Shown piece after piece: positions 9,950 through 33,051 of a DNA stretch of 64,000 nt (position 1 is its first letter; each line of letters opens with the position of its first letter). The notes beneath the pieces are model-generated. The model was not told the DNA's origin. It saw only the letters and a list, made by a program, of their open reading frames with translations, and did not search any database. The translations under genes and the position numbers were made by a program. Source of the stretch: a virus (lineage: Duplodnaviria > Caudoviricetes); IMG/VR virus record IMGVR_UViG_2872980847_000002, positions 6,327-70,326 of that record, one strand, 5' to 3'.

Positions 9950-10192
9950 GTGTACGGGATGGTGTTCGAGGAGCTGGCTGTCGAGGTCATGGCCGACCTG
10001 CCGACCGACATGGCGCGGTACGAAGTGCTGGCCCTGATCGAGCGGGTGCGTTTGGATCCGACGGCATGGCCGGACGTGCGGGATGTGGGGTCCGTTGAGG
10101 AGATCCGTGAGGCGTTCGGTCCGCTGTGCTGGGTGCAGTACACGCCGCATGCGGGCGCGATTGAGGTGCGCGAGATCGGGTGGGCTGGTTGA
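9950..10192 (+). CDS. Small hypothetical protein, possibly RelE/ParE-like
   Basis: 80 aa, LP..R..DP and terminal V..I.W.G pattern. Confidence 0.5.
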   Translation: MYGMVFEELAVEVMADLPTDMARYEVLALIERVRLDPTAWPDVRDVGSVEEIREAFGPLCWVQYTPHAGAIEVREIGWAG

Positions 10193-10287
10193 CGTGGGAG
10201 CGATGTCGCGCCTCGCGCGTGCTGGTACCTACTCCTTACCGCGATCGAGGGCGATGCTCTTGCCCCCCTCCCTGTCAGGTTCTCCGA

Positions 10288-10629
10288 TCAGGCTGCCCGG
10301 TCGGGGTCATCGATCCCCACGCGGACGAGGAGCTCCTGCATCAACGTCCGGCCGGTGGGGAGCACCCCCAGATCCGGGGTCCAGCAGTGGCCGGCAGAGC
10401 AGGTGATCTCGGCCGGGCTTTCCCAGGTGCCCCGTGCCGTCAGGTCGCGGTCAGCCCCGCACTCTGGGCACTTGATGAGCGTCGTGACGGGAGGGAGCGG
10501 GGGTTCCCCGGCCTCGAAATAAGTGCCGTCGGCTTCAACGGCGTTATCGAAGAATTGCTCCATCCTGGCGTCGGACTCGTCGCCGGTCGACATCGTGATG
10601 GGCCCGCCGACCGTCACCTCGTAGGTCAT
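10288..10629 (-). CDS. Zn-ribbon hypothetical protein
   Basis: CPEC...CSAGH; SD GAGAGGG. Confidence 0.6.
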   Translation of the reverse strand: MTYEVTVGGPITMSTGDESDARMEQFFDNAVEADGTYFEAGEPPLPPVTTLIKCPECGADRDLTARGTWESPAEITCSAGHCWTPDLGVLPTGRTLMQELLVRVGIDDPDRAA

Positions 10630-10812
10630 GATGTGTCCCTCTCCCGCCTGCGCCGACGTTCTCATGGGTGAGCCTCTCCACTCGTACACGCCGCGTCAAC
10701 TCACCTTGCCGGACGCCGACCGCAGCAGCGCCGCAGCAGGGCCCGCCGAATGCCTTGTGGGCTGCTCTTTCGGATGCCGTAGCGTCAGGCGGAACGCGGC
10801 GATGGAGGCGGG

Positions 10813-11862
10813 ATGGTCACGGGGTGGGAGCAGCAGCACAAGGAGATCCTCGGAGAGGATCCTTGGGCCCGCGTGCAACGACTGGCCTGGCAGCTCACGG
10901 AACGCCGGATCGGGTACTCCGCAGGCGACGTGGACGCCTATGAAGCCGGTGAGCACACGCCTGAAGCGGCGGCCGAACGTCGGCGCAGCTGGCTGCCAGC
11001 CTCTCGACTGCTGGCGTTGGCCCTGTGGAGGGCAGGGCGCGAGGCTGGCCTACTTGTCGACGATGTTCCCGTGCAGCGGGCGCTGTGGTGGTTGGGCGGA
11101 GCCCGCGCCGGCGACCTTTTCGCCCGACCGCTTCCTTCTTGGGATGTCGGAGTCGTCGGCAATTGGTCTCGCGTCCAGGAGCAGTACATGGTGATGGAGG
11201 ACGCCGCGCGGGACGTTGTGGCCTGGCACGCAATGGCTGAGGCCGCTGAGTCGCGGCCGTACGCGGATAGCGATAACACCATGCCTCTACCAGCGATGCT
11301 GCTCGGCACTCGCTGTCGCGCCATCGCCGCCGGGCCGTATCAGGACGGAAAGCCTCCCCGTTGGCAAACCGCAGTGAACTTCGCATCCGAACGCCTCGAC
11401 GCAGCGTTCGTCGGACTGCGGTCTGGACTCTGGCAGCCCGACCTCGATGTCCGCGAGGCCGCTGGCGCCCTCCACCTCACGCTGGCCGCGGGACCGGACC
11501 TTGAATCCCCGCCGCTGCCGGATGGCTACTCAGGCCCTCTCTGGATCCAGCGACTCATCCACGCCGAGCACGTTCACGCAACGATCCGGTCGGTGCTTAA
11601 CCACTACGGCAGCAAGGCGGGTCTGGCGGCACAAGCCCCCCTCGGCTACGCGCTGAGAGCGACGCTGGCCGCCCTCGTCGGATGTCTGCCGACCGCGCAA
11701 GAGCTGGAACGGCTGTGGGCGCATCGCGGCGGGACGGTAGGGCAGTGGGAACGTGCGCACGTGCCGCGGGCGCTGCGCCAGCACGTGATGGCGCTTGAAA
11801 AGCTCATCAGCGAGTTGTGTTCCCTCGCCGAGTTGCTCGTCGATCCCGACGCGCGGTACTGA
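10813..11862 (+). CDS. Hypothetical protein
   Basis: 349 aa ORF with GGAGG SD. Confidence 0.65.
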   Translation: MVTGWEQQHKEILGEDPWARVQRLAWQLTERRIGYSAGDVDAYEAGEHTPEAAAERRRSWLPASRLLALALWRAGREAGLLVDDVPVQRALWWLGGARAGDLFARPLPSWDVGVVGNWSRVQEQYMVMEDAARDVVAWHAMAEAAESRPYADSDNTMPLPAMLLGTRCRAIAAGPYQDGKPPRWQTAVNFASERLDAAFVGLRSGLWQPDLDVREAAGALHLTLAAGPDLESPPLPDGYSGPLWIQRLIHAEHVHATIRSVLNHYGSKAGLAAQAPLGYALRATLAALVGCLPTAQELERLWAHRGGTVGQWERAHVPRALRQHVMALEKLISELCSLAELLVDPDARY

Positions 11863-12046
11863 CCACGGAGACGGACGCAGGCGAACCGCGGCACGGGCAG
11901 GTGGCACACGAGCACGCCCGGTCGCCGATGCCGGCAACGGCTCTACTGGTGAGTGTTGTTGGCGGGTATTTGAGTGGGCGATAGTGCAGGTGTTCGTCGC
12001 TGGCTACACTGATCGCCAGCGCGGGGGCGCGCACCTGAGGAGAAAG

Positions 12047-12748
12047 ATGGTCCGGTCCCTGCCATCCCGCCGCCCTGTTGGGTATCGCCGCGATGGGCGG
12101 CCGATTTTCCCGGTTCTCGGGGCCTCGCCGGAGGACGAGACAAACGACCAGCTCGATGACGCGACGGAAGCCGCCGTCCAGGATCAGCAGGTGACGGTCA
12201 CCCAGGAGCGTCTGGGGAAGTTGCTGACGCGTGAGAAGGCGCAGGGTGAACGCGCCGCAATCAAACGGCTGTTGGCGTCACTGGGATTTGAAAGTCCGAA
12301 GGCGTTGACGGAGTTCGTTACCGTGCAGCGTGAGGCCGAGCAGGCCGCCTTGTCGGAGATTGAGCGCCGGGAACAGGCGGCTGCCGAGAGGGAGTTGCAG
12401 GCAGCTCGTCGCGAGGAGCTGGCGGCGCAGCGGGAGCAGGCGGCGCTGCGCCGGGCGGCCTTGGTCGCGTTGGGTGCCTCGGGTGAGGATCTGGTGGACG
12501 CCGAACGGCTGCTGGCCACGGACGACGAGGACGCGGACGAGGCGCAGATCCAGGCCGCGGCCGAGGCACTGCGGGCTCGGCGCCCGGAGCTGTTCGGCGA
12601 CGTGCGGGGACCGGTGGCGGCGGCTCCTGCTGGGGCTCCGGTGGGGCGCGGGCCGTCGCGGACGACGCCGGCGCAGCGGCCGGGCTCGGCGGGGCTGGAG
12701 ATGGCCCGTCGCCGCGGCCTGCTGCGTGAGTCCGGCGAGGCACGCTGA
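12047..12748 (+). CDS. Capsid scaffolding protein
   Basis: E/A/R-rich coiled coil, RPELF motif, upstream of capsid. Confidence 0.8.
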   Translation: MVRSLPSRRPVGYRRDGRPIFPVLGASPEDETNDQLDDATEAAVQDQQVTVTQERLGKLLTREKAQGERAAIKRLLASLGFESPKALTEFVTVQREAEQAALSEIERREQAAAERELQAARREELAAQREQAALRRAALVALGASGEDLVDAERLLATDDEDADEAQIQAAAEALRARRPELFGDVRGPVAAAPAGAPVGRGPSRTTPAQRPGSAGLEMARRRGLLRESGEAR

Positions 12749-13288: not shown

Positions 13289-14338
13289 GTGACGATTCAG
13301 GACCTGTTGAAGGACGTCCAGGCTGTTGATCTGACGACGTTCGCCCGTGCTGTCCCCTCCCCGAAGGACTTCCTGCTCACGCAGAGCATCTTCCCGACGC
13401 TGGAGCTGAATGAGGTCAAGTGGCGGATCAAGGACTCTGGTCGCTACGTGAACGCGGCGAAGTACAGGGCATTCGACTCCTCGGTGCCGTTCGCGACCCG
13501 TGAGGCGTGGCAGACCTCCCGTGAGGGCGCGCTGCCGGCGCTCGGGCAGAAGCTGGTGGTCGGTGAGCAGGAGCAGATCTTGCTGGAAGCCTCGCGCGGC
13601 GCCGATGAGGACCGGCTGATCAACCTGCTCTACGACGACGTCGAGCGGCACGTGGAAGCCATCCGTTCCCGGCTGGAGCTGGCGGCCGGTGATGTGCTGG
13701 TGGACGGGAAGTTCTCGCTGGTGCAGGAGAACGGGCTGACGCTGGAGGTGGACTGGAACGTCCCCGCGGCGAACATGCCGGTCGCCGCCCGCCCCTGGTC
13801 GGACCCGGCCTCGGACCCGATTGCCGATGAGCTGCGGTGGATCCAGCACCTGGACGACATCGGCGCGCCGGAGCCGGAGATGGTGCTCACCAGCCGGAAG
13901 GCGTTCAGCTTCCTGGCCGCGAACAACGCCTACCGCGCGGCGTACTACGGCTCGGTGAACCCCTCGACGACGCCCACGGCGACGCTCACACCGCAGCAGA
14001 TCAACGTGGTGCGCGGCAACTACAGCCTGCCGCCGGTGACGTTCTACAAGGCGCAGGTGCGGGTGGATGGCACGCCGCGCAAGGTGCTGCCGGAGGACCG
14101 GTGGGTGTTGGTGCCGCCGGATCGGGAGAAGTGGGCGCAGACGATGTTCGGCGTGACCGCGGAGGGCCTGGTGCTCTCCCGCGGCTCCAATCCGGAGATC
14201 GTGCGGGAGGACGCACCGGGGATCATCATCACCCGCGGGGTGCAGGATGACCCGGTGCAGATCTGGACCAAGGGCGCCGCCGTCGGCATGCCGGTGATGC
14301 ACACCCCGGACGCGCACGTCGTGGCGAAGGTGCTGTGA
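13289..14338 (+). CDS. Major capsid protein (lambda E-like)
   Basis: AAKYRAFD, RLELAAG, DPIADE, DPVQIWTK motifs. Confidence 0.92.
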   Translation: MTIQDLLKDVQAVDLTTFARAVPSPKDFLLTQSIFPTLELNEVKWRIKDSGRYVNAAKYRAFDSSVPFATREAWQTSREGALPALGQKLVVGEQEQILLEASRGADEDRLINLLYDDVERHVEAIRSRLELAAGDVLVDGKFSLVQENGLTLEVDWNVPAANMPVAARPWSDPASDPIADELRWIQHLDDIGAPEPEMVLTSRKAFSFLAANNAYRAAYYGSVNPSTTPTATLTPQQINVVRGNYSLPPVTFYKAQVRVDGTPRKVLPEDRWVLVPPDREKWAQTMFGVTAEGLVLSRGSNPEIVREDAPGIIITRGVQDDPVQIWTKGAAVGMPVMHTPDAHVVAKVL

Positions 14339-14634: not shown

Positions 14635-14706
14635 TCGCTCGTACGGCCCGACACCCAGGCGCGCCTGCGGTGCCGGGCCGTCCTCGTCGTGGTGAAGGAG
14701 GTACCG

Positions 14707-15036
14707 GTGGACGAGTTCCAGCGGGCCTGGCTGATCGCCCAGCTCGGCCCGGATGCCGACCCGGCTGACTTGGAGCGCAGGTTCTTCCGCCTGGGGTCGG
14801 TGCGGGCGGTCGCCCTGGAGGTGCTGGGCGAGCGGCGCGCCAAGCTCCTCGCGGACCCGCTGAGGGTCACCGTCGATGGGGTGGTGACCATGGACCTGGC
14901 GGAGAACCTGCGCGGTATCGAGCGGCAGATCGACCAGGTTCGCCAGGCTCCCGCCCCCGACGATCCCGATGGGGAGGACGAGGGCGGCAACGTGTTGGGC
15001 GTGACGTGGATGACACCCGCCCGCCACTACCGGTAG
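14707..15036 (+). CDS. Putative head-tail adaptor
   Basis: AAGGAGG SD; size and position. Confidence 0.6.
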   Translation: MDEFQRAWLIAQLGPDADPADLERRFFRLGSVRAVALEVLGERRAKLLADPLRVTVDGVVTMDLAENLRGIERQIDQVRQAPAPDDPDGEDEGGNVLGVTWMTPARHYR

Positions 15037-15040
15037 GCGA

Positions 15041-15424
15041 TCAGGCGGCGCGTGCTGGGAGCCGGTCTCGCCATTGCTCCAAGTCGGTGGTTGCCTGCCG
15101 GAGGTCCTGGATCAGCTGGTCCAGGACCTCGATGGTGGGGACCGGGATGTAGTCGCGCTCGGGCTGGCCCTGCTCGTTTTCCAGGCCCAGTTCAATGCGG
15201 GAGGGACTGCGCCCTTCGTCGGGGAGGTTGTAGTCCTCGCTGCAGACGGTGGTGAACGCGAACTGGAATCGTCCTCCGTCGACCATCGGGGGCAGCTTGA
15301 CGGTGAGGGGGGCGGACTCGTGGATGATCGAGTCGGTCTCGGGGTTCTCGTCGGCGTGGTTCCCTGCACACCATTGCGGGCAGTTGCCACCGGTTACCGA
15401 TAGTTTCCAGTCTTGCGCGTTCAT
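15041..15424 (-). CDS. DUF6907-like hypothetical protein (alternative start 15445)
   Basis: CPQWC..H...H motif. Confidence 0.55.
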   Translation of the reverse strand: MNAQDWKLSVTGGNCPQWCAGNHADENPETDSIIHESAPLTVKLPPMVDGGRFQFAFTTVCSEDYNLPDEGRSPSRIELGLENEQGQPERDYIPVPTIEVLDQLIQDLRQATTDLEQWRDRLPARAA

Positions 15425-15575
15425 AGTCCGAATTCTGCCACTCATCTGGAATGATCTATTCCGGGTGGGTGGCTGTCTTGAGGGGCGGTCGGCGTGGACG
15501 GCCGTTCGACTTGGTCGTCGAGACACTGCTCGGTGCGTTTTGCTTGTGGCACCTGGCTTCCGGGACTATGGCGGC

Positions 15576-16904
15576 ATGGCCTCGTTGAAGCAGTTTGAGC
15601 CCGCGTCCGGCACCCGCGATTTCCTCGCCGTCGAGCATGAGAGGCGGGAACGCGCGTTCGCGACGATCCGGGAAGTGTTCGGCCGCTACGGCTTTCAGCC
15701 CCTCCAGACGCCGGCGTTCGAAAGGTTGGACGTCCTCACCGGCAAGTACGGCGATGAGGGCGACCAGCTGATCTTCAAAATCCTGAGGCGCGGCGAGCAT
15801 GAGGCGACCGGCGAGGCCGACCTTGCTCTGCGCTACGACCTCACGGTCCCGCTGGCCCGCGCGGCGGCGGCCTACGGCAGTCAGCTGCCCTCCCCGTACA
15901 AGAGGTTCGCGATCGCGCCGGTGTGGAGGGCAGACCGTCCGGGCAAGGGACGCTTCCGCGAGTTCGTGCAGTGCGACCTGGACATCGTCGGGTCGTCCTC
16001 GCCGCTGTCCGACGCCGAGGTCGTCCTCGCCCTGCACGACGCGCTCGAAGCTCTGGGGGTGCCGGAGTTCCGGTTCCTGCTGAACTCCCGGCACGTCCTG
16101 TTCGGCCTGCTGGAGGCGTACGCGGTTCCCGAGGACCTGGGCTCCGGCGTGCTGATCACGCTCGACAAATTGGACAAGCTCTCCCCGGAGGCTGTCGTCG
16201 GCGAGCTGGTGACCAAGCGCGGGCTGGCGCAGGACGTGGCGCAGGGCCTGGTGGATGACCTGACCTCGCCGGACGCGGTCGAGCGGATCCGGGGTGAGCT
16301 GGCGTCCAGCGAGATGGGACAGGCAGGTCTGGCGGAGGTGGACCGGCTGCTGGAGCTGACCAAGGACGCGATCCCCGCCGAGCGGATCGCGTTCACGCCA
16401 AACCTGGTGCGCGGACTCGACTACTACACGGGGCTGATCTTCGAGGTCTCGGCGCCGGGCATGCCGGGATCGATCGCCTCCGGCGGCCGGTATGACGGGC
16501 TCATCGCCCGGCTCGGCGGCAAGGACTCCCCGGCCTGCGGCGGCTCGCTCGGCGTTGAGCGGATCCTTCCGCTGCTGGAGCAGGCCGACCAGGACGCCTA
16601 CTCGCAGATCGACGTGGCTGTCACGGTCATGGGCGAGGACCTGTCGGCGGACAGCTTCCGGCTGGCGGCTGAAATCCGCCGGGCCGGGGTTCGAACCGGT
16701 GTTTACCTCGGGTCCAGTGGGAAGTTCGCCAAGCAGATGAAGTGGGCCAACGACCAGGGTGCCCGCTTCTGCGTGATCTACGGCCAGAGTGAGCGCGACG
16801 CCGGCACGGTCACGCTGCGGGACATGAACAGCGGCGAGCAGGTCCACGTCCCGCTCGATGAGGCTGCCGCGGAACTCGCGCGGCGGTGCGCACCATCCAG
16901 TTGA
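15576..16904 (+). CDS. hisS: Histidyl-tRNA synthetase, full length
   Basis: GTRDF, LRYDLTVP, WRADRP..GRFREF.QCD, LVRGLDYY, GGRYDGL, SLGVERI, C-terminal anticodon-binding domain. Confidence 0.97.
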   Translation: MASLKQFEPASGTRDFLAVEHERRERAFATIREVFGRYGFQPLQTPAFERLDVLTGKYGDEGDQLIFKILRRGEHEATGEADLALRYDLTVPLARAAAAYGSQLPSPYKRFAIAPVWRADRPGKGRFREFVQCDLDIVGSSSPLSDAEVVLALHDALEALGVPEFRFLLNSRHVLFGLLEAYAVPEDLGSGVLITLDKLDKLSPEAVVGELVTKRGLAQDVAQGLVDDLTSPDAVERIRGELASSEMGQAGLAEVDRLLELTKDAIPAERIAFTPNLVRGLDYYTGLIFEVSAPGMPGSIASGGRYDGLIARLGGKDSPACGGSLGVERILPLLEQADQDAYSQIDVAVTVMGEDLSADSFRLAAEIRRAGVRTGVYLGSSGKFAKQMKWANDQGARFCVIYGQSERDAGTVTLRDMNSGEQVHVPLDEAAAELARRCAPSS

Positions 16905-16949
16905 CGCGCAGCGGGCCCTGTCCGCTGCCGACTTTCTTAGGAGGAGCGG

Positions 16950-17561
16950 ATGGGAACGCAAGGCGACAAGATTTTCGCGGTGACGGCTGAGCGCGGGTTC
17001 CCCGACCCGTGGCTCAGCTTCGGCGACTCACTGTGTGACGAGGCCGCGCTGAGCACGGAGTTAACCCGCGCGATCAGCAGGGCCCGCAAGGAACCGTCGG
17101 CCGAGGCGCGTGCCGAGGTCGCGCGGGTCTTCGAGGCGAAGAAGGCAAACCTGCGGCGCTGCGCCGGGATCCTCGACCAGGTCCTGGGCGACTACGACGA
17201 CTCGGGCATGTGGACGGTCCTGGATGAGCGGGCCGGAAGGCTCGATGTCGCGGACGTGCTGGAGACGTGGGCGCGCACGCAGGCGCTGCACCCGTTCCCT
17301 GTCGTGCTCAAGAGCCTGGAGTTCAACTGGGGCTACATGAAGGAGCACGGCGTCCGGGCGTTCTACGAGATGACCCGCGGCTATATCGCGCGGTTGAAGG
17401 AGAACACTGACCGCTGGCACGACGCCTGGGATGGCGAGGTCGAGACCGGGGTGGTGGACCGCATCACGTCCATCGAGTGCGACCTGGCGAGCATCGAGGC
17501 GCCGATGCACTGCGACGTGTGCAAGAAGACGATCAGCGCGTTGCTGTACCTCGACGAGTAG
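16950..17561 (+). CDS. Hypothetical protein downstream of hisS, C-terminal Cys cluster
   Basis: AGGAGG SD; ECD...HCDVC; in-frame TTA at 17061. Confidence 0.8.
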   Translation: MGTQGDKIFAVTAERGFPDPWLSFGDSLCDEAALSTELTRAISRARKEPSAEARAEVARVFEAKKANLRRCAGILDQVLGDYDDSGMWTVLDERAGRLDVADVLETWARTQALHPFPVVLKSLEFNWGYMKEHGVRAFYEMTRGYIARLKENTDRWHDAWDGEVETGVVDRITSIECDLASIEAPMHCDVCKKTISALLYLDE

Positions 17562-17596
17562 CTAGCGGCGGCCCGGCGGGCTGCCGTGGCCCTGAA

Positions 17597-17641
17597 GCGT
17601 TGCGCCCCCGCATCCGAGTGATCGGAGCGGGGGCGCAACGC
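17597..17641. terminator. Hairpin between convergent genes
   Basis: GCGTTGCGCCCCCG ... CGGGGGCGCAACGC. Confidence 0.75.
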
Positions 17642-17648
17642 TTGGCGA

Positions 17649-17897
17649 CTACTTGAGGTCGAACTCGCCGTCGCGGGCGCCGAGGATGAACGCCTCCCAC
17701 TCGGCTGCCGTGTAGCGGAGCGGCGGGTCGTCCGGGCAAGCGGAGTTCCGCATGGCTACTGCGCCTTCCGGCAGGCGTGCGATCTCCACACGGTTGCGTG
17801 GGTCGCTGCCGGGCGCCCCTATCCACTCCAAGCCACTCAGGTCGAGGTCATAGAGGTCGTCCTGCGCTCGGCCCTCGCTCACGTCAGACAGTGCCAT
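17649..17897 (-). CDS. DUF397 protein
   Basis: VEIA..GAVAMRNS..LRYT.AEW.AF..G.RDGEFD. Confidence 0.9.
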   Translation of the reverse strand: MALSDVSEGRAQDDLYDLDLSGLEWIGAPGSDPRNRVEIARLPEGAVAMRNSACPDDPPLRYTAAEWEAFILGARDGEFDLK

Positions 17898-18096
17898 TCC
17901 GTACAGCCGTGACGAACTCCTGCCACACGGCTGGGGCAAAGGTGTGGGCTCCCAGAAGGCGGTTCTTGCTGTCGCCGCAGGCGATGTCACCCTCGGCGGT
18001 CGTCTGCTTCTCGAAGCATTGCCCCCCGTTATCGGTGCTGTAGGAGGACTTGGACCACTTGTCCTCGGGGAGGTCGTGCCGCATCATCTGGTGCAC
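17884..18096 (-). CDS. DUF397 protein
   Basis: W.KSSYS..GGQC.E..DSK..W..FV. Confidence 0.88.
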   Translation of the reverse strand: MHQMMRHDLPEDKWSKSSYSTDNGGQCFEKQTTAEGDIACGDSKNRLLGAHTFAPAVWQEFVTAVRNGTV

Positions 18097-18197
18097 CTGC
18101 CTCTAACTGATCAGTTCCATCGATTGCCGTGATGGCGGGTGTTCTTCTTCTGCACGGCGAGGAGGAACACCCGCGTTCTACTTGTGGCTGATGTTGG

Positions 18198-18425
18198 TTA
18201 TGCGCCGACGTAACCGACGAAGGACGACCATGCTGACTTCGGTACGACGATGGCTGGTCCTTGCTTGTCTTTGGAGTCGCGGATGCCGACGTGGCCGGTG
18301 TAGGCCAGGTCGGCGACCTCGACGCAATTGCCGTTGTTCTGCGAGCTGTACGAGGACTTCGTCCATGCACTCTCAGGGGCCAGGTCTGTGGAGGTGGGGA
18401 ACCGCTGATGCTGAGTCATGTCCAT
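18198..18425 (-). CDS. DUF397 protein
   Basis: WTKSSYS..GNCVEVA..IRDSK..W..FV. Confidence 0.92.
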   Translation of the reverse strand: MDMTQHQRFPTSTDLAPESAWTKSSYSSQNNGNCVEVADLAYTGHVGIRDSKDKQGPAIVVPKSAWSSFVGYVGA

Positions 18426-19276
18426 AGTTTCTTTTCGAGGGCTTGCAGGATTTGCGGCGTCTGAGCAGGGCCGGGAGCTGCCTTGACCATGGCATCGAAC
18501 TGCCGCTGGTACTGCCCGACATCCGCCTCCTTGGACCACATGGTTGTGGCCTTGGCACTGTCACTCTGAACCACCGGTCCGAGGTCGGCGAACTCTAGGA
18601 CTGTGAAGTTGAACCCAGCTCGATAGGTAGGCAGGTCTTCAGGGATGATCTGCACCTCAACGTTGTCCAGGCTATTGAGGCGGATGATCTCTGCGTACTG
18701 GGCGCGCATGACCTCGGGGGAGCCGACAACCGTACGCAGGGTGTTCTCCGTCAGGATTATGTGCACCTCGGCGCTGCCTGACGACAAAGTATTTTTGCGG
18801 TCCATCCGCAGCTCGACTCCGCGATCAACGAACTCCGTAGTTCGTTCTTCGACGATCTTCGCGGAGCCGCCCAGGGCCTGCGCATAGGCCTCATCTTGCA
18901 GCAGGCCGTGGACGACGTTGTTCTCATACCCGCGGATCTTGATCGCATCGCGCTCCAGACCGAGATAAAGCGGCAGCCCAGAGGGCAGCAAGTTTCGGTA
19001 CGAAGTGAACGGCTCCTTGCTGAGTGAGTCCCGCTGCATCTTCAGCAGCTCGGCGCGATCGTCCAGGTCTGTCACCCTGTAGCGGTCCATCATCTTTTCG
19101 AGATCCGCAAGCTTGGGAAGCGGAATATCCCCCGCCTCGACCCGACTGATCTTCGAACGCGAGAAGCCCAAGGCAACGGACACCGCCTCCGCTGTCTCGC
19201 CAGTGCGCTCGCGGAGGGTCCGCAGCTCCTTCCCGAGCGCCACTCGTAGGTAGGTCGGTCCTCGTCGTGCGGCCAC
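18416..19276 (-). CDS. XRE HTH + DUF5753 regulator (Scr1/WhiJ-like)
   Basis: LGKELRTLRE HTH; HGLLQDEAYA; EVQIIP. Confidence 0.92.
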   Translation of the reverse strand: MAARRGPTYLRVALGKELRTLRERTGETAEAVSVALGFSRSKISRVEAGDIPLPKLADLEKMMDRYRVTDLDDRAELLKMQRDSLSKEPFTSYRNLLPSGLPLYLGLERDAIKIRGYENNVVHGLLQDEAYAQALGGSAKIVEERTTEFVDRGVELRMDRKNTLSSGSAEVHIILTENTLRTVVGSPEVMRAQYAEIIRLNSLDNVEVQIIPEDLPTYRAGFNFTVLEFADLGPVVQSDSAKATTMWSKEADVGQYQRQFDAMVKAAPGPAQTPQILQALEKKLWT

Positions 19277-19775
19277 CTGTCCCCTCACTTCGGTTCGCTG
19301 TCCGTCAGATCGAGGCCCCTGTCCAGCTGTACAGAGTTTCTGTCCACTGGGCCCGGGGTTCAGTCCGGAGTCTGGCATGCCCTGCCCTCTCTGCAACACC
19401 CTCTGTCGGTTACTTGGCAATTGCCAATACGGACTAGACGGCACTTTCGTCAGAGCTTTCCCTTGAATGTTAATTGGGGTGTGCGCAACGCTTGTTGGGC
19501 CGCGCAGGCGTCGCTTCATCACGGGGCGGGACTATCGCGCGGTGCAGTCGAGTGCACCTGCTGCGCGGTCCGGCGGCCGACCTCGTCGAGACCTGCGAGC
19601 GCAGCGGTGCCTCGCTCAAAGGCTCCCGTACTGCCTACTGTGACAGGTGCCCGACGATGACGAAGTCAACCGACCGAGCAAGCCGCAAACTTTGCGCTGG
19701 TAGCTTCGAGACCTGCTGTGCCCGGATGGTGTGGGTAGCGATCTGTGATTGCCCCGAAGCTGCGGGCGGCGACAC

Positions 19776-20297
19776 ATGAGGGCGCCCAGCACCTCATGTT
19801 CAGCCAGCCGCATCGCTGAGGCCAGCACGCAGCACTACCGGCAGCAACTCACCGCTGACCCAGAGCAGATCCGGCGCGTACGCCGGATCGTCACCGCCTT
19901 CCTGCGGTACTGGGGTTGGGGACAGTTCATCGACCCGGCGGTCCTGTGCGTCACGGAGATGCTGTCCAACGTGCGGAGCCACGCGGACTCCGACGACTGC
20001 GTTCTTCTCCTCCAGGCGTCACCGGCCGGCGTGCGCATCGTGGTTAGCGACGGCAGTCAAGCTCTCCCCGTCGTGCGTGAGCCTGAATGGCTCGCGGAGC
20101 GCGGACGCGGAATGTTCCTGCTGAGCAGCAGCGCCGATGCCTGGGGAGCTGACATCACCCGCGAGGGCAAGGACGTCTGGATCGAGTTCTGGAGTGGTGC
20201 TGCGGAATCGCGGGATGGCGTCGCCGTCCCTGCACGGCCCGAAACCGACTGCCCTGTCGGCGGTTCGTCGCTCGCAACCAGCAGGCGGTCAGCGTGA
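19776..20297 (+). CDS. ATP-binding anti-sigma-like protein (HATPase_c_2)
   Basis: TEMLSNV..H, VSD, ERGRGMFL, WG, GKDVW. Confidence 0.9.
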   Translation: MRAPSTSCSASRIAEASTQHYRQQLTADPEQIRRVRRIVTAFLRYWGWGQFIDPAVLCVTEMLSNVRSHADSDDCVLLLQASPAGVRIVVSDGSQALPVVREPEWLAERGRGMFLLSSSADAWGADITREGKDVWIEFWSGAAESRDGVAVPARPETDCPVGGSSLATSRRSA

Positions 20298-20674
20298 GTC
20301 AGCCGATTCCCCAGAGCTACTGGTGCTACATGGCTTGTTTCAGGCCCGGCAGTGACCGCATGACGATGAGCACCGACATCGTCCTCCCGTACCCCGGCCG
20401 CGCCATCAGCTGGATACGCCAAGAAGTGCGGCTGGTGGCCGCTGGGTTGGCCGACGAAGCGGACCGCGCCAAAGCGACGACCTGGCTCGACGACCTCATA
20501 ACCGCAGGAGTCGCCGTTCGCGAACTGCGGTCCGGCTCCGGTTCGTACGCGTTCCAGCTGATCACTGCGCGGGGCGCCCGGTGGATATGGGCCGGTCACG
20601 ACGCCGCCCGGCTGTCTGCTCTCACGGCACCCGAACCCCACCCGGCCCTCGCCGGCCGGACACCCACCCACTGA
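20294..20674 (+). CDS. Hypothetical protein
   Basis: GTGA-coupled ORF. Confidence 0.6.
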   Translation: MSQPIPQSYWCYMACFRPGSDRMTMSTDIVLPYPGRAISWIRQEVRLVAAGLADEADRAKATTWLDDLITAGVAVRELRSGSGSYAFQLITARGARWIWAGHDAARLSALTAPEPHPALAGRTPTH

Positions 20675-20707
20675 ACTCGCGCCATCTCAACGCCTCTTGG
20701 AGAGATC

Positions 20708-20878
20708 ATGGCTCGCTCCACCCAAGCTCCCTTTCCCCGTCTCCGGTGGGCGGTACGGCACCCGATCAAGATCTTGGACCGCGCAGGATTCGGCCCGGTG
20801 CAAGCGGCCGTCGTCGGGATCTTCTTCGTCGGCGTGCTCGTCTGGCTCGCAATGACCTACCTCTCCCTGCGCCGCTAG
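20708..20878 (+). CDS. Small single-TM protein (56 aa, absent from ORF track)
   Basis: TTGGAGAG SD; MARSTQAPFPRLRW...VVGIFFVGVLVWLAMTYLSLRR. Confidence 0.6.
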   Translation: MARSTQAPFPRLRWAVRHPIKILDRAGFGPVQAAVVGIFFVGVLVWLAMTYLSLRR

Positions 20879-21104
20879 CGGCTCCCAGACCGGTCCTCCC
20901 GCGCTTGGCCTTTCGCGGGAGGACCGCCCGGGCCTCGTTGCTCCCGCCGGTTCCCAGCCCGGCAGGTCGTAGCGACGAGCGACGCACACCGCCCGGTCAT
21001 GCGGATGTGCGTCCCGGCCGCCGCGTTCAGGGGTGCGCGCGGCGGCCGGCCCACCCACCTACCCGTCCCCCTTCCGAACCTCCCGACCGTCCCCGGAGAC
21101 CCGC

Positions 21105-21749
21105 ATGACCCGCAAGGCCCCGCCCCTGCCACACCTCAGCCTTACTGCGCCTCAGCCCGCCCGGCAGGAGACAGCCAACGCGGCATACGCCCTTGACCGA
21201 GAGCTACGTGCGGCTGGCCTGAACAGCCTCATGCCCAGGCTCGACACCAACGGCGCAGTGCCGTACGTCAGGCTGAACGGGATCAACACCGCGGCGGCAG
21301 ATGAACTGACGCAGTTGCTTCGCAAGGCGATGCGCGGCACCTACAAGGTGGCCGCCCAACTGCGCGCCGCGGTGCGGGCCCACGGCCTGGACGACTTCCC
21401 CGAACCGACCGTCTACGACTCAAAGATCCATCTCGGCGACGTCTCGATCGCCACGGCGGACAAGCTGGCCTGCGTCCTTGGCGCCCCACCCCAGGCCGAG
21501 CTGGCAGAGACCCCTGACTGGCCCGAGGCCCAGCAGGTCGCGAACCGGCTCGACGTCGCGTTCAAGAAGGCCACCGGCGGCGGATTCATGGATCAGTACC
21601 TCCACCCCTACTGCCGGCGATGCGACTGCGACCCGGCCATCGAGCTGGGAGACCTCACCAAGGGCACCGCTCGACGACTGGTGAAGGCACTCCACGAGGC
21701 TCACGACGCCGCCCCGGCGCCCGCCGCACTGAGGGAGAGGTCGGCATGA
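21105..21749 (+). CDS. Hypothetical protein with CxxC
   Basis: GGAGA SD; coupled to next gene. Confidence 0.7.
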   Translation: MTRKAPPLPHLSLTAPQPARQETANAAYALDRELRAAGLNSLMPRLDTNGAVPYVRLNGINTAAADELTQLLRKAMRGTYKVAAQLRAAVRAHGLDDFPEPTVYDSKIHLGDVSIATADKLACVLGAPPQAELAETPDWPEAQQVANRLDVAFKKATGGGFMDQYLHPYCRRCDCDPAIELGDLTKGTARRLVKALHEAHDAAPAPAALRERSA

Positions 21750-22651
21750 CGGCATTCGAACTGCCCAAGGACCACGATGCCCGACGCCGGTACCTGAACA
21801 GCCCCCGGGTCCCGCACATCTACGACTTCCTGATCGGTGGCAACGAGTCCTATCACCAGGACCGCGAGGCCGCCATCGCCCTCTACCAGGTGGCCGACTG
21901 GATCAAGACCGCCGCTCTCATCAACCGCGAGTTCGGCCGCTTGTCGGTCCAGATGTCCTTGGAGTTGGGCGTCAGGCAGTTCCTCGACCTGGGATGCGGC
22001 CTGCCCGCCAAGCCCACCAAGCCGGTGGCAGCCGACCTCCACGAAACCGTCGCCAAGGTCGAGCGCGGTTGCCCCGTCGTCTACGTGGACCGCGACCCCG
22101 CCGTGTACGGCCACGCGAAGTGCGAGCTGGACGACAATCCTCCGCACAACACCACCGCGGTGCATGCCGACCTGCTCGACATGTACCAACTCCTAGGCAG
22201 CGACGAGGTGACCGACGCCTTCGACCTCTCCCAGCCGGTCGCCGTCACCATCCACGACACCCTGCCCTGGACTGAAGACGACGCAGCCGTAGAGCACGCC
22301 TTGAAGGTGCTGCGGCAATGGATGCCGCCGGGCAGCACCCTGTCGATCACCCATCTGACCGACCATTGGCACCCCGTCACGATGCCCGATTTGGTCGCGG
22401 CCTATGACCGGCTCGGCATCGGTGTACGGCCCCGCACCCAGGCACAGATCGCCGACCTCTTCGGGGACTTCGTCCACCAGGGGCCGGGACTGGTCGCCAC
22501 GGGGCGGTGGTTCGACAACGGCCCGTACTTCCTGCACCCGCCCGAGCACTCGGCCGCCTTCGCTGGCATCGCCCGCAAGGCCGGGCCGGTAGCCAAGCTG
22601 CCCCACGAAGACGCCCGCGAGGCGGCCACCGTACGGGGAGAGGCGGCATGA
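21746..22651 (+). CDS. SAM-dependent methyltransferase (actinobacterial Methyltransf_19-type)
   Basis: IYDFLIGG..DREAA, RQFLDLGCGLP, VVYVDRDP. Confidence 0.9.
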   Translation: MTAFELPKDHDARRRYLNSPRVPHIYDFLIGGNESYHQDREAAIALYQVADWIKTAALINREFGRLSVQMSLELGVRQFLDLGCGLPAKPTKPVAADLHETVAKVERGCPVVYVDRDPAVYGHAKCELDDNPPHNTTAVHADLLDMYQLLGSDEVTDAFDLSQPVAVTIHDTLPWTEDDAAVEHALKVLRQWMPPGSTLSITHLTDHWHPVTMPDLVAAYDRLGIGVRPRTQAQIADLFGDFVHQGPGLVATGRWFDNGPYFLHPPEHSAAFAGIARKAGPVAKLPHEDAREAATVRGEAA

Positions 22652-29598: not shown

Positions 29599-29715
29599 TG
29601 GGGTGCCTGTGCAGGAACTCCTTAACGGACTGTTGCCACGGCAGGAGGCTGGCGAGGAACCTGCTGTAGCGCGGGGCGCCCCGTTCTGTCCGACAGCTGT
29701 CCTAGCGTCGTGGGA

Positions 29716-30090
29716 ATGGATCACCACAACGACGAGGATCTGCACCGAGTGAAGATCACCGCTCGCGGCGCGAAGGCTGCGATCGAGATCGACGGGCAGC
29801 GCATAGACCCGGGCGCCCTCAGCGGCTACACCGTCAGCCACCGCGAGGGAGAGCCGCCGCAGGTCGTTCTCCTTTCCAGCCAGGACGCGGAGACGGTCTT
29901 CAAGGGCCTGGCCCGGGTAGCGGTTGCTGACATGCCCGACCCTGGCCCGGCCGCCGCGATGTTCCTGGCGTCGATCGACCCTGAGGAACTGGAGCGGACC
30001 GCGCTGTGCCGACCCGACCTTGGCACCGGCCCGCACTCCCTGACCCAGGCGATGCTCACCCAGCTGCGGGAGTGGGCCAGTGGCGCTTGA
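29716..30090 (+). CDS. Hypothetical phage protein
   Basis: Overlaps next structural gene. Confidence 0.65.
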   Translation: MDHHNDEDLHRVKITARGAKAAIEIDGQRIDPGALSGYTVSHREGEPPQVVLLSSQDAETVFKGLARVAVADMPDPGPAAAMFLASIDPEELERTALCRPDLGTGPHSLTQAMLTQLREWASGA

Positions 30091-30511
30091 CGTGGAGGGG
30101 GCGCGGCGGGTGGTCGGCCGAATCCTGGACGACAAGCTGGAGGTGTGGCGCGACAGTGGCGGCCACGCCGACGACCTCCTGGACGAGACCACAGGGGCAC
30201 TGGTGCGTCCGACACCGGACGAGGTGCTGGTGTGGGACGGGCTCGGGGCGGTCATGTCGCTGGGGCGCCCAGCGATCACCAAGCCGGTGGACGGCGCGGT
30301 CTCCGTCGAGCCGCCGACGACCGACTACCAGGCCGTGCTGCCTGTCGGGGCTCCCGTGCTGCGGCCGGATGACGTGATCCGCGTCGCCGGTTCCGTACGG
30401 CCGGGCGGCCCGCGGGACCCGCAGCTTGTCGGCCGCCGCTTCCGGGTGTCGGACGAGTCCGTGGGTACGTTCAGCGTGGTGCGGATCGTGCGCGTGCAGG
30501 TGATCAACTGA
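30080..30511 (+). CDS. Head-closure protein (DUF6093-like)
   Basis: DETTG...VWDG...DPQLVGRRFRV. Confidence 0.75.
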   Translation: MALDVEGARRVVGRILDDKLEVWRDSGGHADDLLDETTGALVRPTPDEVLVWDGLGAVMSLGRPAITKPVDGAVSVEPPTTDYQAVLPVGAPVLRPDDVIRVAGSVRPGGPRDPQLVGRRFRVSDESVGTFSVVRIVRVQVIN

Positions 30512-30939
30512 TGGCCGCCGTGGATCCGCACCCCAACGCCCACCCGGACGCCGCAGAGTTCCGGGACCCGATCGCGCTGGCCGCCGCGCTGGCCGGACTG
30601 GGGCCAGCTGTGCGCGCCCGCACGCGGACCATCACCCAGCACCACGCGATGCTGCTGCGGGTCAGGATCCAGCGCAACGCCTCCGGACGGCCCGGTCCGA
30701 ACGTGATCACCGGCCAGTACCGGGCCTCGTGGGGCGTGCGGGTCAGCACCGGTGGCGGCGAGGTGACGGCGGAGGTGTACTCAGACGCGCCGCAGGCCAG
30801 GCGGCTGGAGTACGGCTTCGTCGGCGTCGATGCGCTCGGCCGGCACTACCGTCAGCCGCCGTTCCCGCACATCGAGCCCGCCTTCCGGCAGACCGAGCCC
30901 GGCTACATCCAGGCGCTGGCGGACGGAGTGCTGCCGTGA
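30511..30939 (+). CDS. Neck protein (HK97 gp10-like)
   Basis: TGQYRASW, RRLEYG, PPFPH..PA. Confidence 0.8.
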   Translation: MAAVDPHPNAHPDAAEFRDPIALAAALAGLGPAVRARTRTITQHHAMLLRVRIQRNASGRPGPNVITGQYRASWGVRVSTGGGEVTAEVYSDAPQARRLEYGFVGVDALGRHYRQPPFPHIEPAFRQTEPGYIQALADGVLP

Positions 30940-31385
30940 CCGCTGCCCGCCTGCCGGTGACCCGGGCCCTGGTCGCGCTGGTCGAGCAGGCGACCGGGCG
31001 GCCATGCGGCCTCGGCGAGCTGCCGCGGGTGCAGGACGACGCTGGCGAGTGGCAGCCCGCGCAGGTGCCGTACGCCATCGTGGACTCGCTGCCAGGGACG
31101 TTCTCCGGGCCGCCGCTGTGGGATTGGCAGGCCGATGCCGCCTGGTCCTACCAGGTCACGTCGGTTGGCGAGCGGGAGGACCAGGTGCAGTGGCTCGCCG
31201 ACCGCGTACGCCACGGCATCGTCGGCCGCACCTCCGGCCGGTGGGCCTACGAACTGGACGTTGCTCAAGCGCGCGTCATCGACAGGCAGTTGGAGCACGA
31301 CGCCGCAGGGCAGACCTCGGTGTCGGCGGCAGGCGCTATCGTTTCCTACGTGCAGCGGTTCACCATCACCGTGACCCCTGCCTGA
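30936..31385 (+). CDS. Tail terminator
   Basis: PYAIV, YQVTSVG..Q..WLADRVR; position. Confidence 0.75.
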   Translation: MTAARLPVTRALVALVEQATGRPCGLGELPRVQDDAGEWQPAQVPYAIVDSLPGTFSGPPLWDWQADAAWSYQVTSVGEREDQVQWLADRVRHGIVGRTSGRWAYELDVAQARVIDRQLEHDAAGQTSVSAAGAIVSYVQRFTITVTPA

Positions 31386-31514
31386 AAGAGCTTCTGATCC
31401 TCACCGCGGAGGCCCGCGCGGACGCTCGGCCACAAGGCCCATGCGAACCCCCTTTGGACATCCAGGGGCAGGGCCTCAAGCACGGGACGCTGCCCCACAG
31501 ATGGGAGCGGACCT

Positions 31515-32123
31515 GTGTCCTCGAACAATCCGTCGTCCACCCAGACTCGATTCCTCCGGCGCGGCATCTCCAAGATCTACTGGCTGAAGACGATCAACGA
31601 CCCGAAGTGGCCGACCCGCACGGAGATCAGCCAGCCGAACCGGTTCGACCTGACGCACGCGGTCTCCGACATGTCGGGATGGGCGCTGGCGAACGAGCCG
31701 ATCGAGACCCCCGACATGGGCTCGACGTTCAACTCCTCGATCCCCGGCGCCGACAAGGCGGACAAGAGCGACCTGACGTTCTACGAGGACCAGCACTCCG
31801 ACGCGATCGAGCAGCACCTGAACAAGGGCGCCAAGGGCTGGATCGTGCTGCTACGCAAGGGCGACATTCCCGGCTCGCGCTCTATGGACGTCTTCCCCGT
31901 CCAGGTCGCCTCGCGTGCCGCGACCTACGCGACCGGCAACGAAGCGGCGAAGTTCAAGGTGGAGTTCACCATCACCGACGAGCCGTCGCTCGATGTCGTG
32001 GTGCCCGAGGCGTTCCACACCCTTCCCAAGCCGAACAAGGACCGTGACGACGATGGCGAGACCGTCGATGTCACCGTGGTGAGTGCCACCGCAGCCACCG
32101 TCCACGAGCACATCGAGGACTGA
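31515..32123 (+). CDS. Major tail (tube) protein
   Basis: PTRTEI, IETPD, SIPG, LTFYED, DVFPV. Confidence 0.85.
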   Translation: MSSNNPSSTQTRFLRRGISKIYWLKTINDPKWPTRTEISQPNRFDLTHAVSDMSGWALANEPIETPDMGSTFNSSIPGADKADKSDLTFYEDQHSDAIEQHLNKGAKGWIVLLRKGDIPGSRSMDVFPVQVASRAATYATGNEAAKFKVEFTITDEPSLDVVVPEAFHTLPKPNKDRDDDGETVDVTVVSATAATVHEHIED

Positions 32124-32125
32124 CG

Positions 32126-32686
32126 GTGTCGCAACCCGCACCCACCAAGCGCCCGTCCCCTCCGCGTAGTCAAACGCCGGCGGAGGGGGCGTGGGCGGCG
32201 AAGATGGACCGCCTTCGCCGCCGCGCACGACCGCAGAACAAGCTGCGCATCTGCGATGACGAGCAGCTACGGAACCGGGTCGATGAAGCCGAACAGGCAG
32301 CACTGCGTGCCCGGCTCCTCGCCGAGGCGAGCCCCGAGGACGAAGGCGCCCTCAAGCGGGCCGCCGAAGCCGAAGCCGCCCTTGCGGAAGCCCGCGTCGC
32401 GCTGGACGACGCCTCCGACTTCCTGACCTTCCGCGCACTGGCGCGCCCGATCCTCGAAGAGCTGATCGCCGGGCATCCCCCGACCGAGCAACAAGCCGGT
32501 GAAGGAGCGGTGTTCAACCCCGATACCTTCCCGGCGGCGCTGATCTCAGCCGCGTCCTTCGAGGGGATGAGCCAGCAGGAGGCGGCCGAGCTGCTGTCCA
32601 CGTGGTCGGCGCCGGACGCCAACATGCTGTGGGAGGCCGCCTGGTCGGTGCAGCAGGAAGGCCGGGTGGACCTGGGAAAAGGCTGA
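32126..32686 (+). CDS. Tail assembly chaperone (G)
   Basis: HPPT..FNPDTF; ends at slippery GGGAAAA. Confidence 0.85.
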   Translation: MSQPAPTKRPSPPRSQTPAEGAWAAKMDRLRRRARPQNKLRICDDEQLRNRVDEAEQAALRARLLAEASPEDEGALKRAAEAEAALAEARVALDDASDFLTFRALARPILEELIAGHPPTEQQAGEGAVFNPDTFPAALISAASFEGMSQQEAAELLSTWSAPDANMLWEAAWSVQQEGRVDLGKG

Positions 32687-33051
32687 GCCGTGATCCGCAG
32701 TTGCGTGCCGAGCTGGAGCTGTGCGCGAAATTCCGCATTCCACACTCGCAGCTGCTCGGCGGCGACGGCCGGTGGACGGAGCTGGACCGGGCCAAGGCGT
32801 TGGCATGGGAGGAGTGGCAGCGGTCGGTGTGCCCCGAGTGCCACACCCGCCTGTCCGAATGGGACCCCCAGCGCGGCGGCGACCGTCACGCGTACGTCAC
32901 TGACACCCTGCGTTGCCCCGGCTGCGAGTTGATCGAGCAGGAACGCGACCACGTGCCCACGGACCGCTCCGGTTACGGCGTGAAGATCCAGCTCCTGCCC
33001 CGCCACCACCAACACCAGGCGAAAACACCTGATCAACCCAGCAGGACGTAG
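32674..33051 (+). CDS. Tail assembly chaperone extension (GT) via -1 frameshift
   Basis: G GGA AAA at 32674-32680; -1 frame open to 33051; CPEC..CPGC. Confidence 0.8.
   Translation, partial: GKRLSRDPQLRAELELCAKFRIPHSQLLGGDGRWTELDRAKALAWEEWQRSVCPECHTRLSEWDPQRGGDRHAYVTDTLRCPGCELIEQERDHVPTDRSGYGVKIQLLPRHHQHQAKTPDQPSRT

Follow-up and report, generated by a model that had tools for sequence, protein, structure and literature searches.

A second histidyl-tRNA synthetase and a dependent partner protein form a rare mobile cassette shared by prophages, conjugative elements and chromosomes of actinomycetes

The window studied here, a stretch of 64,000 nucleotides that makes up the right-hand 64 kb of the 70,326-bp virus record IMGVR_UViG_2872980847_000002 (Duplodnaviria; Caudoviricetes), carries two adjacent genes, one for a complete histidyl-tRNA synthetase (HisRS), termed HisRS2, and one for a 203-amino-acid partner protein outside known families. 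We found that these two genes form a discrete mobile cassette, that both are under purifying selection and that the presence of the partner depends on HisRS2, not the reverse. An original prediction, made from the letters of this DNA, had placed a prophage-encoded HisRS of a foreign sequence type together with a cysteine-containing partner at 15540–17561. Coordinates and content of this segment proved correct with small refinements, the HisRS gene running from the ATG at 15576 to 16904 and the partner gene from 16950 to 17561, both on the plus strand. Three results go beyond that prediction, namely the mobility of the pair as a cassette, its repeated location near whiJ/bldB/abaA-type regulators, and the age of the HisRS2 lineage among actinobacteria.

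At about 2.05 kb, the cassette (window 15504 to about 17645) begins with some 60 nt of conserved DNA, continues with the two genes and closes with a strong terminator. DNA shared with other carriers, whose loci and genomes are numbered with the prefixes L and G, is confined to the stretch from 15504–15520 to 17562–17637, both flanks being unrelated unless the carrier belongs to the same phage lineage. Nucleotide identity of the shared unit amounts to 88 % for L001, L008 and L111 and to 83 % for L002 and L004. The window and the prophages L008 and L111 have the order terminase, portal, capsid, two small genes and cassette in common. The loci L002 and L005 belong to integrative conjugative elements of the pSAM2 type with RepSA, DUF2637 and GntR-type genes, L005 additionally holding an FtsK/SpoIIIE-like gene and a serine recombinase, and a third element of this type, L004, encodes a RepSA homologue; the RepSA proteins of the conjugative carriers are 59–60 % identical to each other. 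Chromosomal sites include L003 near a transposase of the IS605 family and L113 beside an N6 methylase, with L112 and L116 as further sites. The cassette of L115 adjoins a group II intron reverse transcriptase, a four-NUDIX protein and an nSTAND1-WD40 gene, and that of L117 (G262) an IS110-family transposase and a type I restriction R subunit. At 9028–11041 of L117, the partner gene was observed downstream of HisRS2 on the opposite strand, which represents a local inversion of the cassette. Terminal repeats were also considered as an explanation of cassette mobility. The only candidate is a weak 15-nt inverted match of 80 % located nearly at both cassette edges (15515–15529 / 17543–17557); it could mark recombination ends, is probably a chance occurrence in GC-rich DNA, and was treated as such.

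Carriers of the cassette are rare. Among 401 sampled Streptomyces species genomes, 10 encode the HisRS2 type and 8 the partner, all 8 lying within the 10, and the two genomes that encode HisRS2 only hold a subtype of about 61 % identity. In a second family, 6 genomes out of 201 proved to contain the partner, and none did among 400 other genomes sampled across the phylum. A search of INPHARED returned 24 of 50,697 records matching HisRS2, all less than 60 % identical and none with a Streptomyces or other actinomycete host, and IMG/VR yielded five HisRS2 matches at 33–41 % identity and no match of the partner.

Purifying selection is apparent from the ratios of non-synonymous to synonymous substitution rates (dN/dS) relative to five other carriers, which range from 0.09 to 0.13 for HisRS2 and from 0.10 to 0.12 for the partner, with similar dS. 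All ten intact partner genes, seven from the Streptomyces sample and three from the second family, adjoin HisRS2. The eighth Streptomyces partner (G112, L112 10969–11573) is interrupted by an in-frame TGA next to a HisRS2 that is still intact. Broken partner remnants were found in G603, by a stop, and in G594, by truncation, both being genomes without HisRS2; the check for HisRS2 covered these two of the three remnants, the third being in G546. HisRS2 without the partner is present at L006, L007 and L014, that is at 3 of 11 Streptomyces loci at 80 % identity or more, as well as at all of L009–L032, and tblastn detected no partner in the fetched flanks (up to 10 kb per side where the contig allows) of L006, L007 and L009–L032. 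The open reading frame (ORF) that follows HisRS2 in L007 was tried as a partner homologue and rejected at an hhalign probability of 0.7 %. Because intact partners always adjoin HisRS2, while HisRS2 often occurs alone, the dependence is one-way.

The synthetase gene (hisS2, 15576..16904, plus strand) encodes a full-length class IIa HisRS of 442 amino acids with a Bacteroidota/eukaryote-like sequence type, as judged from Pfam, NCBIfam, an alignment with solved structures and a tree. As the homologues are 442 amino acids long and begin with MASLKQFEP, and conservation is lost upstream, we re-set the start from GTG 15249, where the mechanical ORF begins, to ATG 15576. The Pfam domain tRNA-synt_His is complete (profile 1–308 of 308), the HGTP anticodon-binding domain PF03129 occupies residues 346–435 (E 3.4e-16), and the NCBIfam model TIGR00442 (hisS) is passed with 359.7 bits at a cut-off of 286.75, this model serving as a control with matches in 14 of 14 control genomes. 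HisZ, which has the fold of the HisRS catalytic core in common with HisRS2, was rejected as an alternative identity: all HisZ models remained under their cut-off (best TIGR00443, 182.9 vs 271.65 bits), while HisRS2 lies above the hisS cut-off and has the anticodon domain. The best solved relative is 6nhi_A (E 3.9e-80), which presumably stems from a Bacteroidota organism, followed by 3net_A and human cytoplasmic HisRS, with E. coli and Thermus HisRS scoring far lower. HisRS2 matches 6nhi_A residue for residue in LRYDLTVP, VWRADRP.KGRFREF.QCD, GLDYYTG.IFEV, GGRY and the G.S.G..R block, which we take to be motifs 1–3 and HisA/HisB, and the catalytic-block residues shared with 6nhi_A are invariant across 35 clade members. 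The claim that all class II and histidine-binding motifs are intact was thereby confirmed, and the two peptides quoted in the prediction were located as LTGKYGDEGDQLIFKIL at residues 54–70 and LRYDLTVP at residues 85–92. Judged from this alignment, HisRS2 is predicted to be catalytically intact. PADLOC families gave no hit for HisRS2 or the partner at E up to 0.001, and PHROGs gave a weak match for HisRS2 (E 1.6e-5).

The suspected foreign sequence type could be substantiated, the window HisRS2 being 28–32 % identical to the canonical hisS of Streptomyces hosts and having 6nhi_A, 3net_A and human cytoplasmic HisRS as its nearest solved chains. Homologues of 80–93 % identity occur in a minority of Streptomyces, among them S. 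clavuligerus with a copy 87 % identical to that of the window. Embleya, Kitasatospora, Actinomadura, Thermomonospora, Nocardiopsis, Amycolatopsis and others encode proteins of 57–71 % identity, followed by Bradymonadales, Caldilineaceae and Myxococcota with 42–44 % and Bacteroidota with 37–41 %. A maximum-likelihood tree was calculated from 62 sequences by a quick search, with support from the Shimodaira–Hasegawa-like approximate likelihood ratio test (SH-aLRT) only, leaving out same-locus duplicates, two truncated rows and 28 of the 48 distant loci L033–L080. The actinobacterial HisRS2 form one clade (SH-aLRT 100), which joins, with a support of 96, a group of Bradymonadales, Caldilineaceae, Myxococcota, Verrucomicrobiota and Riflebacteria as well as a long-branch third Nocardiopsis copy, the branching order of this three-way fork not being settled by the tree. 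Bacteroidota enzymes fall outside the group with support 96, in an unresolved fork. Canonical Streptomyces hisS are separated from HisRS2 by very long branches; the nine 'canonical' outgroup rows are not all on one side of a single branch, and the second copies of Nocardiopsis and Lipingzhangella group elsewhere. The phylogeny against the host hisS that had been proposed as a check therefore shows no clustering with the housekeeping enzyme, and a recent capture of host hisS is ruled out by the low identity together with the separate clades. The HisRS2 lineage is an old actinobacterial one that was not recently imported from Bacteroidota.

In the Streptomyces and Embleya carriers tested, HisRS2 is an additional copy. 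Canonical hisS (431–445 bits) and the HisRS2 type (340–363 bits) are present together in nine of nine Streptomyces and one of one Embleya carrier genomes tested, which rules out HisRS2 as the only hisS in these ten carriers, the window itself being part of a 70-kb virus record without a host genome. At least two hisS copies were found in four other actinomycete isolates as well, and one Nitriliruptoraceae metagenome-assembled genome (MAG) of 2.8 Mb, which may be incomplete, shows the HisRS2 type only. Three hisS-like genes over the NCBIfam cut-off were observed in Nocardiopsis metallicus (G406; L120, L123, L127), one of them being a third type that has a very long branch in the tree and is 41 % identical to the window protein; 2 kb away there is a fourth match, which is weaker.

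The partner gene (16950..17561, plus strand) is supported as a gene by dN/dS and the alignment of its homologues. Its product contains five cysteines, of which C188 and C191, both in the sequence MHCDxC, are invariant among 37 homologues, as are H114 (in HPFP), E183, H187 and many aromatic residues; the description as a cysteine-containing protein of 203 amino acids is therefore accurate. The fold prediction suggested for this gene was carried out with AlphaFold2 and the 37 homologues and resulted in a confident all-helical model with a mean predicted local distance difference test score of 93.4 and a predicted template modelling score of 0.87. The regions that bear the invariant His, Cys and Glu residues are the lowest-confidence blocks of this model (79 and 81). 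A metal or redox site may be formed by the His/Cys cluster. Pfam and NCBIfam gave no match even at E up to 1 across 37 members, PHROGs gave none, Foldseek returned none at E up to 0.001 in PDB or BFVD, and the ESM Atlas contained no usable match. Two members bear the automatic UniRef names 'Thiaminase-2/PQQC domain-containing' and 'Tetratricopeptide repeat protein', which none of the searches supported. A profile search of 1.84 billion representative proteins recovered 53 clusters only. The partner is described here as a new protein family whose presence depends on a synthetase.

The regulatory signals of the cassette start with a conserved upstream segment containing a candidate promoter of a leaderless mRNA (15504..15575, plus strand), in which nucleotide homology to other carriers begins at 15504–15520. 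As had been noticed before, TTGCTT (15540–15545) is followed after 18 nt by GACTAT (15564–15569) and after another 6 nt by the ATG, with no Shine-Dalgarno sequence visible. A block of about 45 nt that leads up to the ATG and includes GCTTCCGGGACTAT hardly varies in nine of ten loci whose upstream DNA is otherwise unrelated; it reads GTTTTGC...GGCTTCCGGGACTATGG(C)CGCATG and lies inside the shared cassette. Since a Shine-Dalgarno sequence is missing and only 6–7 nt separate the −10-like hexamer from the ATG, a leaderless HisRS2 transcript is a reasonable, if unproven, reading. An RNA leader was ruled out, as no Rfam family reached its gathering score in the window and no T-box was found in 15000–18000 at E up to 1. 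The 45-nt spacer between both genes holds a strong Shine-Dalgarno sequence, AGGAGG (16939–16944), for the partner and a hairpin (16908–16928) that was listed as terminator-like and is not better than shuffled sequences (z −1.5; feature 16908..16944, plus strand). Behind the partner gene, between it and a convergent DUF397 gene, a double hairpin (17562..17655) of −70.9 kcal/mol (z −7.9, 0 of 200 shuffles as stable) with a perfect 17-nt inverted repeat (17595–17611 / 17627–17643) is likely to act as a bidirectional terminator.

Sequencing runs contained up to 7 % of the sampled words, the contigs coming from relatives only. RNA-seq contigs of a relative with an approximately 90 %-identical copy, assembled from four runs of one study, cover just the gene pair, from 15534 or 15589 to 17560. 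They are 2.2–2.5 kb long with 237 nt of unlike sequence beyond and a word depth of 70–125, and start at 15589 in two runs and farther upstream in the two others. These contigs are compatible with a two-gene transcription unit in the relative.

Beyond the hairpin the cassette is flanked by genes of the whiJ/bldB/abaA type. A bldB-like DUF397 gene (17649..17990, minus strand; Pfam DUF397, E 1.1e-11) is convergent with the cassette, its counterparts in L008 and L111 being 66–69 % identical. Next comes a second bldB-like DUF397 gene (18198..18539, minus strand; Pfam DUF397, E 5.4e-20), a mechanical ORF whose true start probably lies later, because it overlaps the ORF of the adjoining whiJ-like regulator. 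The latter, featuring HTH_31 and DUF5753 (18416..19522, minus strand, likewise a mechanical ORF), is 81 % identical in L001 and may have an internal true start as well, its helix-turn-helix beginning at residue 95. Divergent from it lies an abaA-like HATPase_c_2 gene, which is anti-sigma-factor-like (19749..20297, plus strand) and has homologues beside the cassette in L001, L008, L111 and L135. Within about 4 kb of the cassette, a whiJ-like gene was found at 13 and a DUF397 gene at 11 of the 16 loci examined, these loci being non-independent as three represent one phage lineage and three related conjugative elements; L003, L115 and L117 have neither gene. By a rough estimate, adjacency through chance would amount to a few percent. 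L134 repeats the arrangement of the window at 58–68 % protein identity. The order on a single strand of L136 (G549, Thermomonospora-like, 8683–12200) is whiJ-like gene, DUF397, HisRS2, partner and DUF397, an arrangement that looks like an insertion into an XRE-DUF397 operon.

Gene families of this kind are large: according to Avramova et al., actinobacterial genomes that contain bldB have a median of 19 paralogues of it, and the WhiJ paralogue WhiJ9 activates the adjacent iosA (PMC10294661). The HTH_31/DUF5753, DUF397 and HATPase_c_2 genes that flank the cassette resemble such loci (iosA-whiJ9-bldB9) and XRE-DUF397 operons, yet the cargo here is an aminoacyl-tRNA synthetase (aaRS) pair and the WhiJ-like proteins vary strongly between contexts. 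For S. clavuligerus, Hwang et al. report that 10 of 24 XRE-DUF397 pairs end in bidirectional terminators facing convergent genes; among the latter are genes for an endonuclease, a HAD phosphatase and an aminoglycoside phosphotransferase, and those authors suggest resistance or cleansing roles (PMC8269248). The cassette shares this layout: it faces the DUF397 genes, with a strong hairpin in between.

The prophage setting claimed for the HisRS gene is well supported, the record itself being viral. Left of the pair the window encodes a large terminase (5387–6880), a portal (7848–9596), scaffold, head decoration and the major capsid protein (13289..14338, plus strand; Phage_cap_E, E 1.1e-38), which served as left anchor and is 89 % identical in L008 and L111. 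The structural operon resumes with tail-side genes for a DUF6093 protein, an HK97 gp10-like protein and a tail tube (29710..33051, plus strand), so that head-tail connector, tail tube, tape measure, minor tail and lysin genes follow from 29710 rightward, with recombination and replication genes beyond. Between capsid-side and tail genes the operon is split by a cargo island of about 14.6 kb (15041–29100) with the gene order DUF6907, HisRS pair, two DUF397, HTH_31/DUF5753 and HATPase_c_2, and with two methyltransferases, two EEP-family genes, a radical SAM gene and a NUDIX gene as further cargo. The DUF6907 gene (15041..15526, minus strand, assigned by Pfam, probable start 15424) stands outside the cassette, between it and the head genes; L008 and L111 have no DUF6907 at that place, the cassette following directly after the homologue of 14689–15036. 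No tRNA gene was found in the window, so that there is no phage tRNA-His to pair with HisRS2, and no phage record contained near-identical DNA to the head-gene region.

Several further observations were made in this record. One of the island methyltransferases belongs to Methyltransf_19 and the second has a weak PADLOC mad2 match, the radical SAM gene gives weak pVip-like PADLOC matches (E 2e-9), and the NUDIX gene matches PADLOC PDC-S07 (E 7e-11). The island of prophage L111 is shorter (about 9 kb), its contents differing after the same initial genes. Just upstream of the terminase, 2585–3925 encodes a 446-amino-acid protein with the Pfam domains 'Phage DNA adenine methylase-like domain 1' and 'Phage GNAT-like domain', possibly a DNA-modification enzyme. 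The early and replication region includes PAPS-reductase-like, N6 DNA methylase-like, DUF4192 and DUF6349 genes (51020–52048, 54272–55309, 55887–58184). At the left end of the record, outside the window (L137, G000 1–6800), lie a tyrosine integrase reaching the contig edge, a serine-recombinase fragment and a ParB-like gene. The right end (58954–64000, minus strand) resembles host or polymorphic-toxin DNA; in a stretch of 72–78 % GC it holds a large, weakly WD40-like ORF (58954–61389), a SUKH-4 immunity gene (61611–62240) and a gene combining a WXG100-like N-terminus with an XOO_2897-type deaminase domain (62309–64000).

Extra synthetases on mobile DNA are already known as a kind. On staphylococcal plasmids, mupA encodes an IleRS2 that acts by target replacement. 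The functions put forward with the original prediction, all of them hypothetical, were resistance to a HisRS inhibitor or to a host defence that targets translation, or a supply of His-AMP or His-tRNA to the partner. We tentatively prefer an explanation similar to that of mupA, in which HisRS2 possibly takes the place of the housekeeping HisRS whenever the latter is blocked, so that tRNA-His stays charged. We infer a replacement role because most of the additional synthetases documented for actinomycetes and plasmids have it; a review lists IleRS2, the two SerRS found in the producer of albomycin and, for S. coelicolor, the second TrpRS (PMC9437257). Also in favour are the intact catalytic blocks and anticodon domain of HisRS2, its presence in addition to a distant canonical hisS, its separate deep clade, the discrete and rare cassette with its several kinds of carrier, the selection on both genes, the constant company of intact partners, the RNA contigs, the terminator fold and the precedents from S. 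clavuligerus and WhiJ9. The mobile, patchy and decay-prone distribution of the cassette fits episodic selection driven by an antagonist. A small molecule or protein toxin of a competitor would inhibit the housekeeping HisRS, and the divergent HisRS2 would maintain His-tRNA(His), charging tRNA-His as a target replacement or bypass. The partner would be an accessory that needs HisRS2 in order to act, and might be a modulator that depends on a metal or on redox state through its His/Cys cluster. The conserved upstream element would drive a leaderless mRNA of a self-contained 'moron' cassette, whose expression would probably be conditional and governed by the adjoining WhiJ-like regulator.

A number of results weigh against this explanation. 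Literature searches found no natural inhibitor or toxin directed at HisRS, we know of none ourselves, and linkage of the cassette to a conserved biosynthetic cluster was seen in none of the 16 loci examined. The active-site blocks of HisRS2 show no visible difference from housekeeping relatives such as 6nhi, and resistance therefore cannot be read from its sequence. The partner has no assignable function; a wide VIA-align search returned only generic or de novo four-helix bundles with Z up to 12.6, a range usual for helical bundles. With respect to regulation, the whiJ-like neighbours are 24–38 % identical between contexts (except for the 81 % in L001), so that the whiJ link holds at family level, and shared insertion hot spots could be partly responsible for it. 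A sigma-70 consensus scan of 15000–18000 gave 0 promoter-like sites, because each hexamer fits three of six consensus positions by our own count. The RNA contigs, coming from a relative and a single study, show neither start, end nor a single transcript, and DNA carry-over is possible.

In the known mobile aaRS that replace a target, namely mupA/ileS2 and the second TrpRS, SerRS and ThrRS of antibiotic-producing or resistant actinomycetes, a divergent, complete second copy likewise exists beside the housekeeping one, and the carriers are mobile elements in both cases. The cassette differs from them in that no cognate inhibitor and no linked biosynthetic cluster were found and in having a dependent partner; mupA is moreover plasmid-borne, whereas the carriers of HisRS2 are prophages and pSAM2-type elements.

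A model for a synthetase serving as back-up under stress is the heat-inducible LysU. Accordingly built, a second explanation holds that HisRS2 is expressed conditionally and maintains charged tRNA-His during a shortage of histidine or whenever the housekeeping enzyme works badly, with no inhibitor involved, which we regard as unlikely though worth serious consideration. A precedent is provided by the mobile second hisS on the histidine decarboxylase (HDC) island of Lactobacillus parabuchneri and hisRS2 in L. reuteri, for which the authors, in the passages available, propose that charging is secured under histidine depletion (PMC5313534, PMC4122935). The cassette is in addition located beside regulator triads tied to development and stress, and the Nitriliruptoraceae MAG, with HisRS2 apparently as its sole hisS, points to a lineage that can serve translation alone, but at 2.8 Mb this MAG may be incomplete. 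As described in those passages, the hdcP-hdcA-hdcB-hisS islands resemble the cassette in their extra HisRS with intact catalytic residues, their mobility and the retention of the core hisS, and differ by a histidine T-box and the linkage to decarboxylase and antiporter (PMC5313534, PMC4122935). The HisRS2 cassette has no T-box or other Rfam element, a start of leaderless type and a different partner. It contains no histidine-consuming enzyme or transporter, homology stopping at the two genes, and no decarboxylase or antiporter was found among its neighbours in the window. Its occurrence in about 2 % of genomes, on mobile elements, also fits episodic selection by an antagonist better than general physiology.

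Chemistry outside translation would be a third explanation and appears improbable to us. HisRS2 would then provide His-AMP, His-tRNA(His) or dinucleoside polyphosphates for a reaction run or sensed by the partner, the product being a small molecule, a modified macromolecule or a signal. Such a role is consistent with the constant association of the intact partner with HisRS2 (10/10) and with its invariant His/Cys/Glu cluster, which suggests a metal site, and passages of the above review document aaRS paralogues that feed biosynthesis (PMC9437257). NUDIX genes are located less than 10 kb away in the window, L111, L115 and L009; they are, however, common in these genomes and show no conserved linkage at the cassette edge. 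HisRS2, in turn, has a complete anticodon-binding domain and often occurs without the partner, which is a plain helical bundle without any enzyme-like fold match.

At best improbable is, in our estimation, an addiction or exclusion device in which the partner disables canonical HisRS or the tRNA-His supply and HisRS2 is the immune substitute, penalising loss of the element or rival elements. Three kinds of mobile element carry the cassette, and intact partners confined to HisRS2 carriers, broken remnants without HisRS2 and a common HisRS2 alone are the decay pattern expected of poison and antidote; a harmless accessory factor would, however, give the same asymmetry. The partner has no similarity to toxins, antitoxins or PADLOC defence families, and the 'antidote' comes first and the 'poison' second, behind a strong Shine-Dalgarno sequence on one transcript, with no sign of differential stability. 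If true, a selfish element would here build its strategy on the exchange of an enzyme essential for translation, and the partner would be the first natural protein to inhibit a HisRS.

Very large phages and giant viruses encode aaRS that presumably raise translation capacity. That HisRS2 likewise boosts translation during infection seems very improbable: the cassette does lie within the late structural operon region of a prophage, but an identical cassette exists on chromosomes as well as conjugative elements, it brings an upstream element and a terminator of its own, and the phage has no tRNA genes, other phage records holding no closely related HisRS or partner. What remains of the probability falls to hitch-hiking without a current role, against which the dN/dS values argue.

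As a promoter-gene-terminator unit inserted between phage genes, a phage moron offers a further comparison. The cassette is similar in its own upstream element and terminator, its location between head and tail genes and its occurrence in non-phage contexts, and differs in that all three related prophages carry it at the same place, no empty site being seen, and in that it opens a cargo island of 9–15 kb inside the structural operon. In the literature searched, mostly without subscription journals, we found neither a second HisRS in actinomycetes nor the partner family described, nor any Streptomyces prophage or pSAM2-type element that has an aaRS among its cargo.

Mobile extra aaRS have so far indicated an antagonist, as for mupirocin, indolmycin, albomycin and agrocin 84. 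A rare, strongly conserved cassette that moves among phages, conjugative elements and islands may thus be a lead to an undiscovered compound or toxin directed at HisRS, and it hints at an as yet unidentified pressure on histidine charging in soil actinomycetes. The large and poorly understood whiJ/bldB/abaA regulator families gain a new kind of cargo neighbour, and a temperate Streptomyces phage would carry a translation enzyme as lysogenic cargo, not for its own lytic growth.

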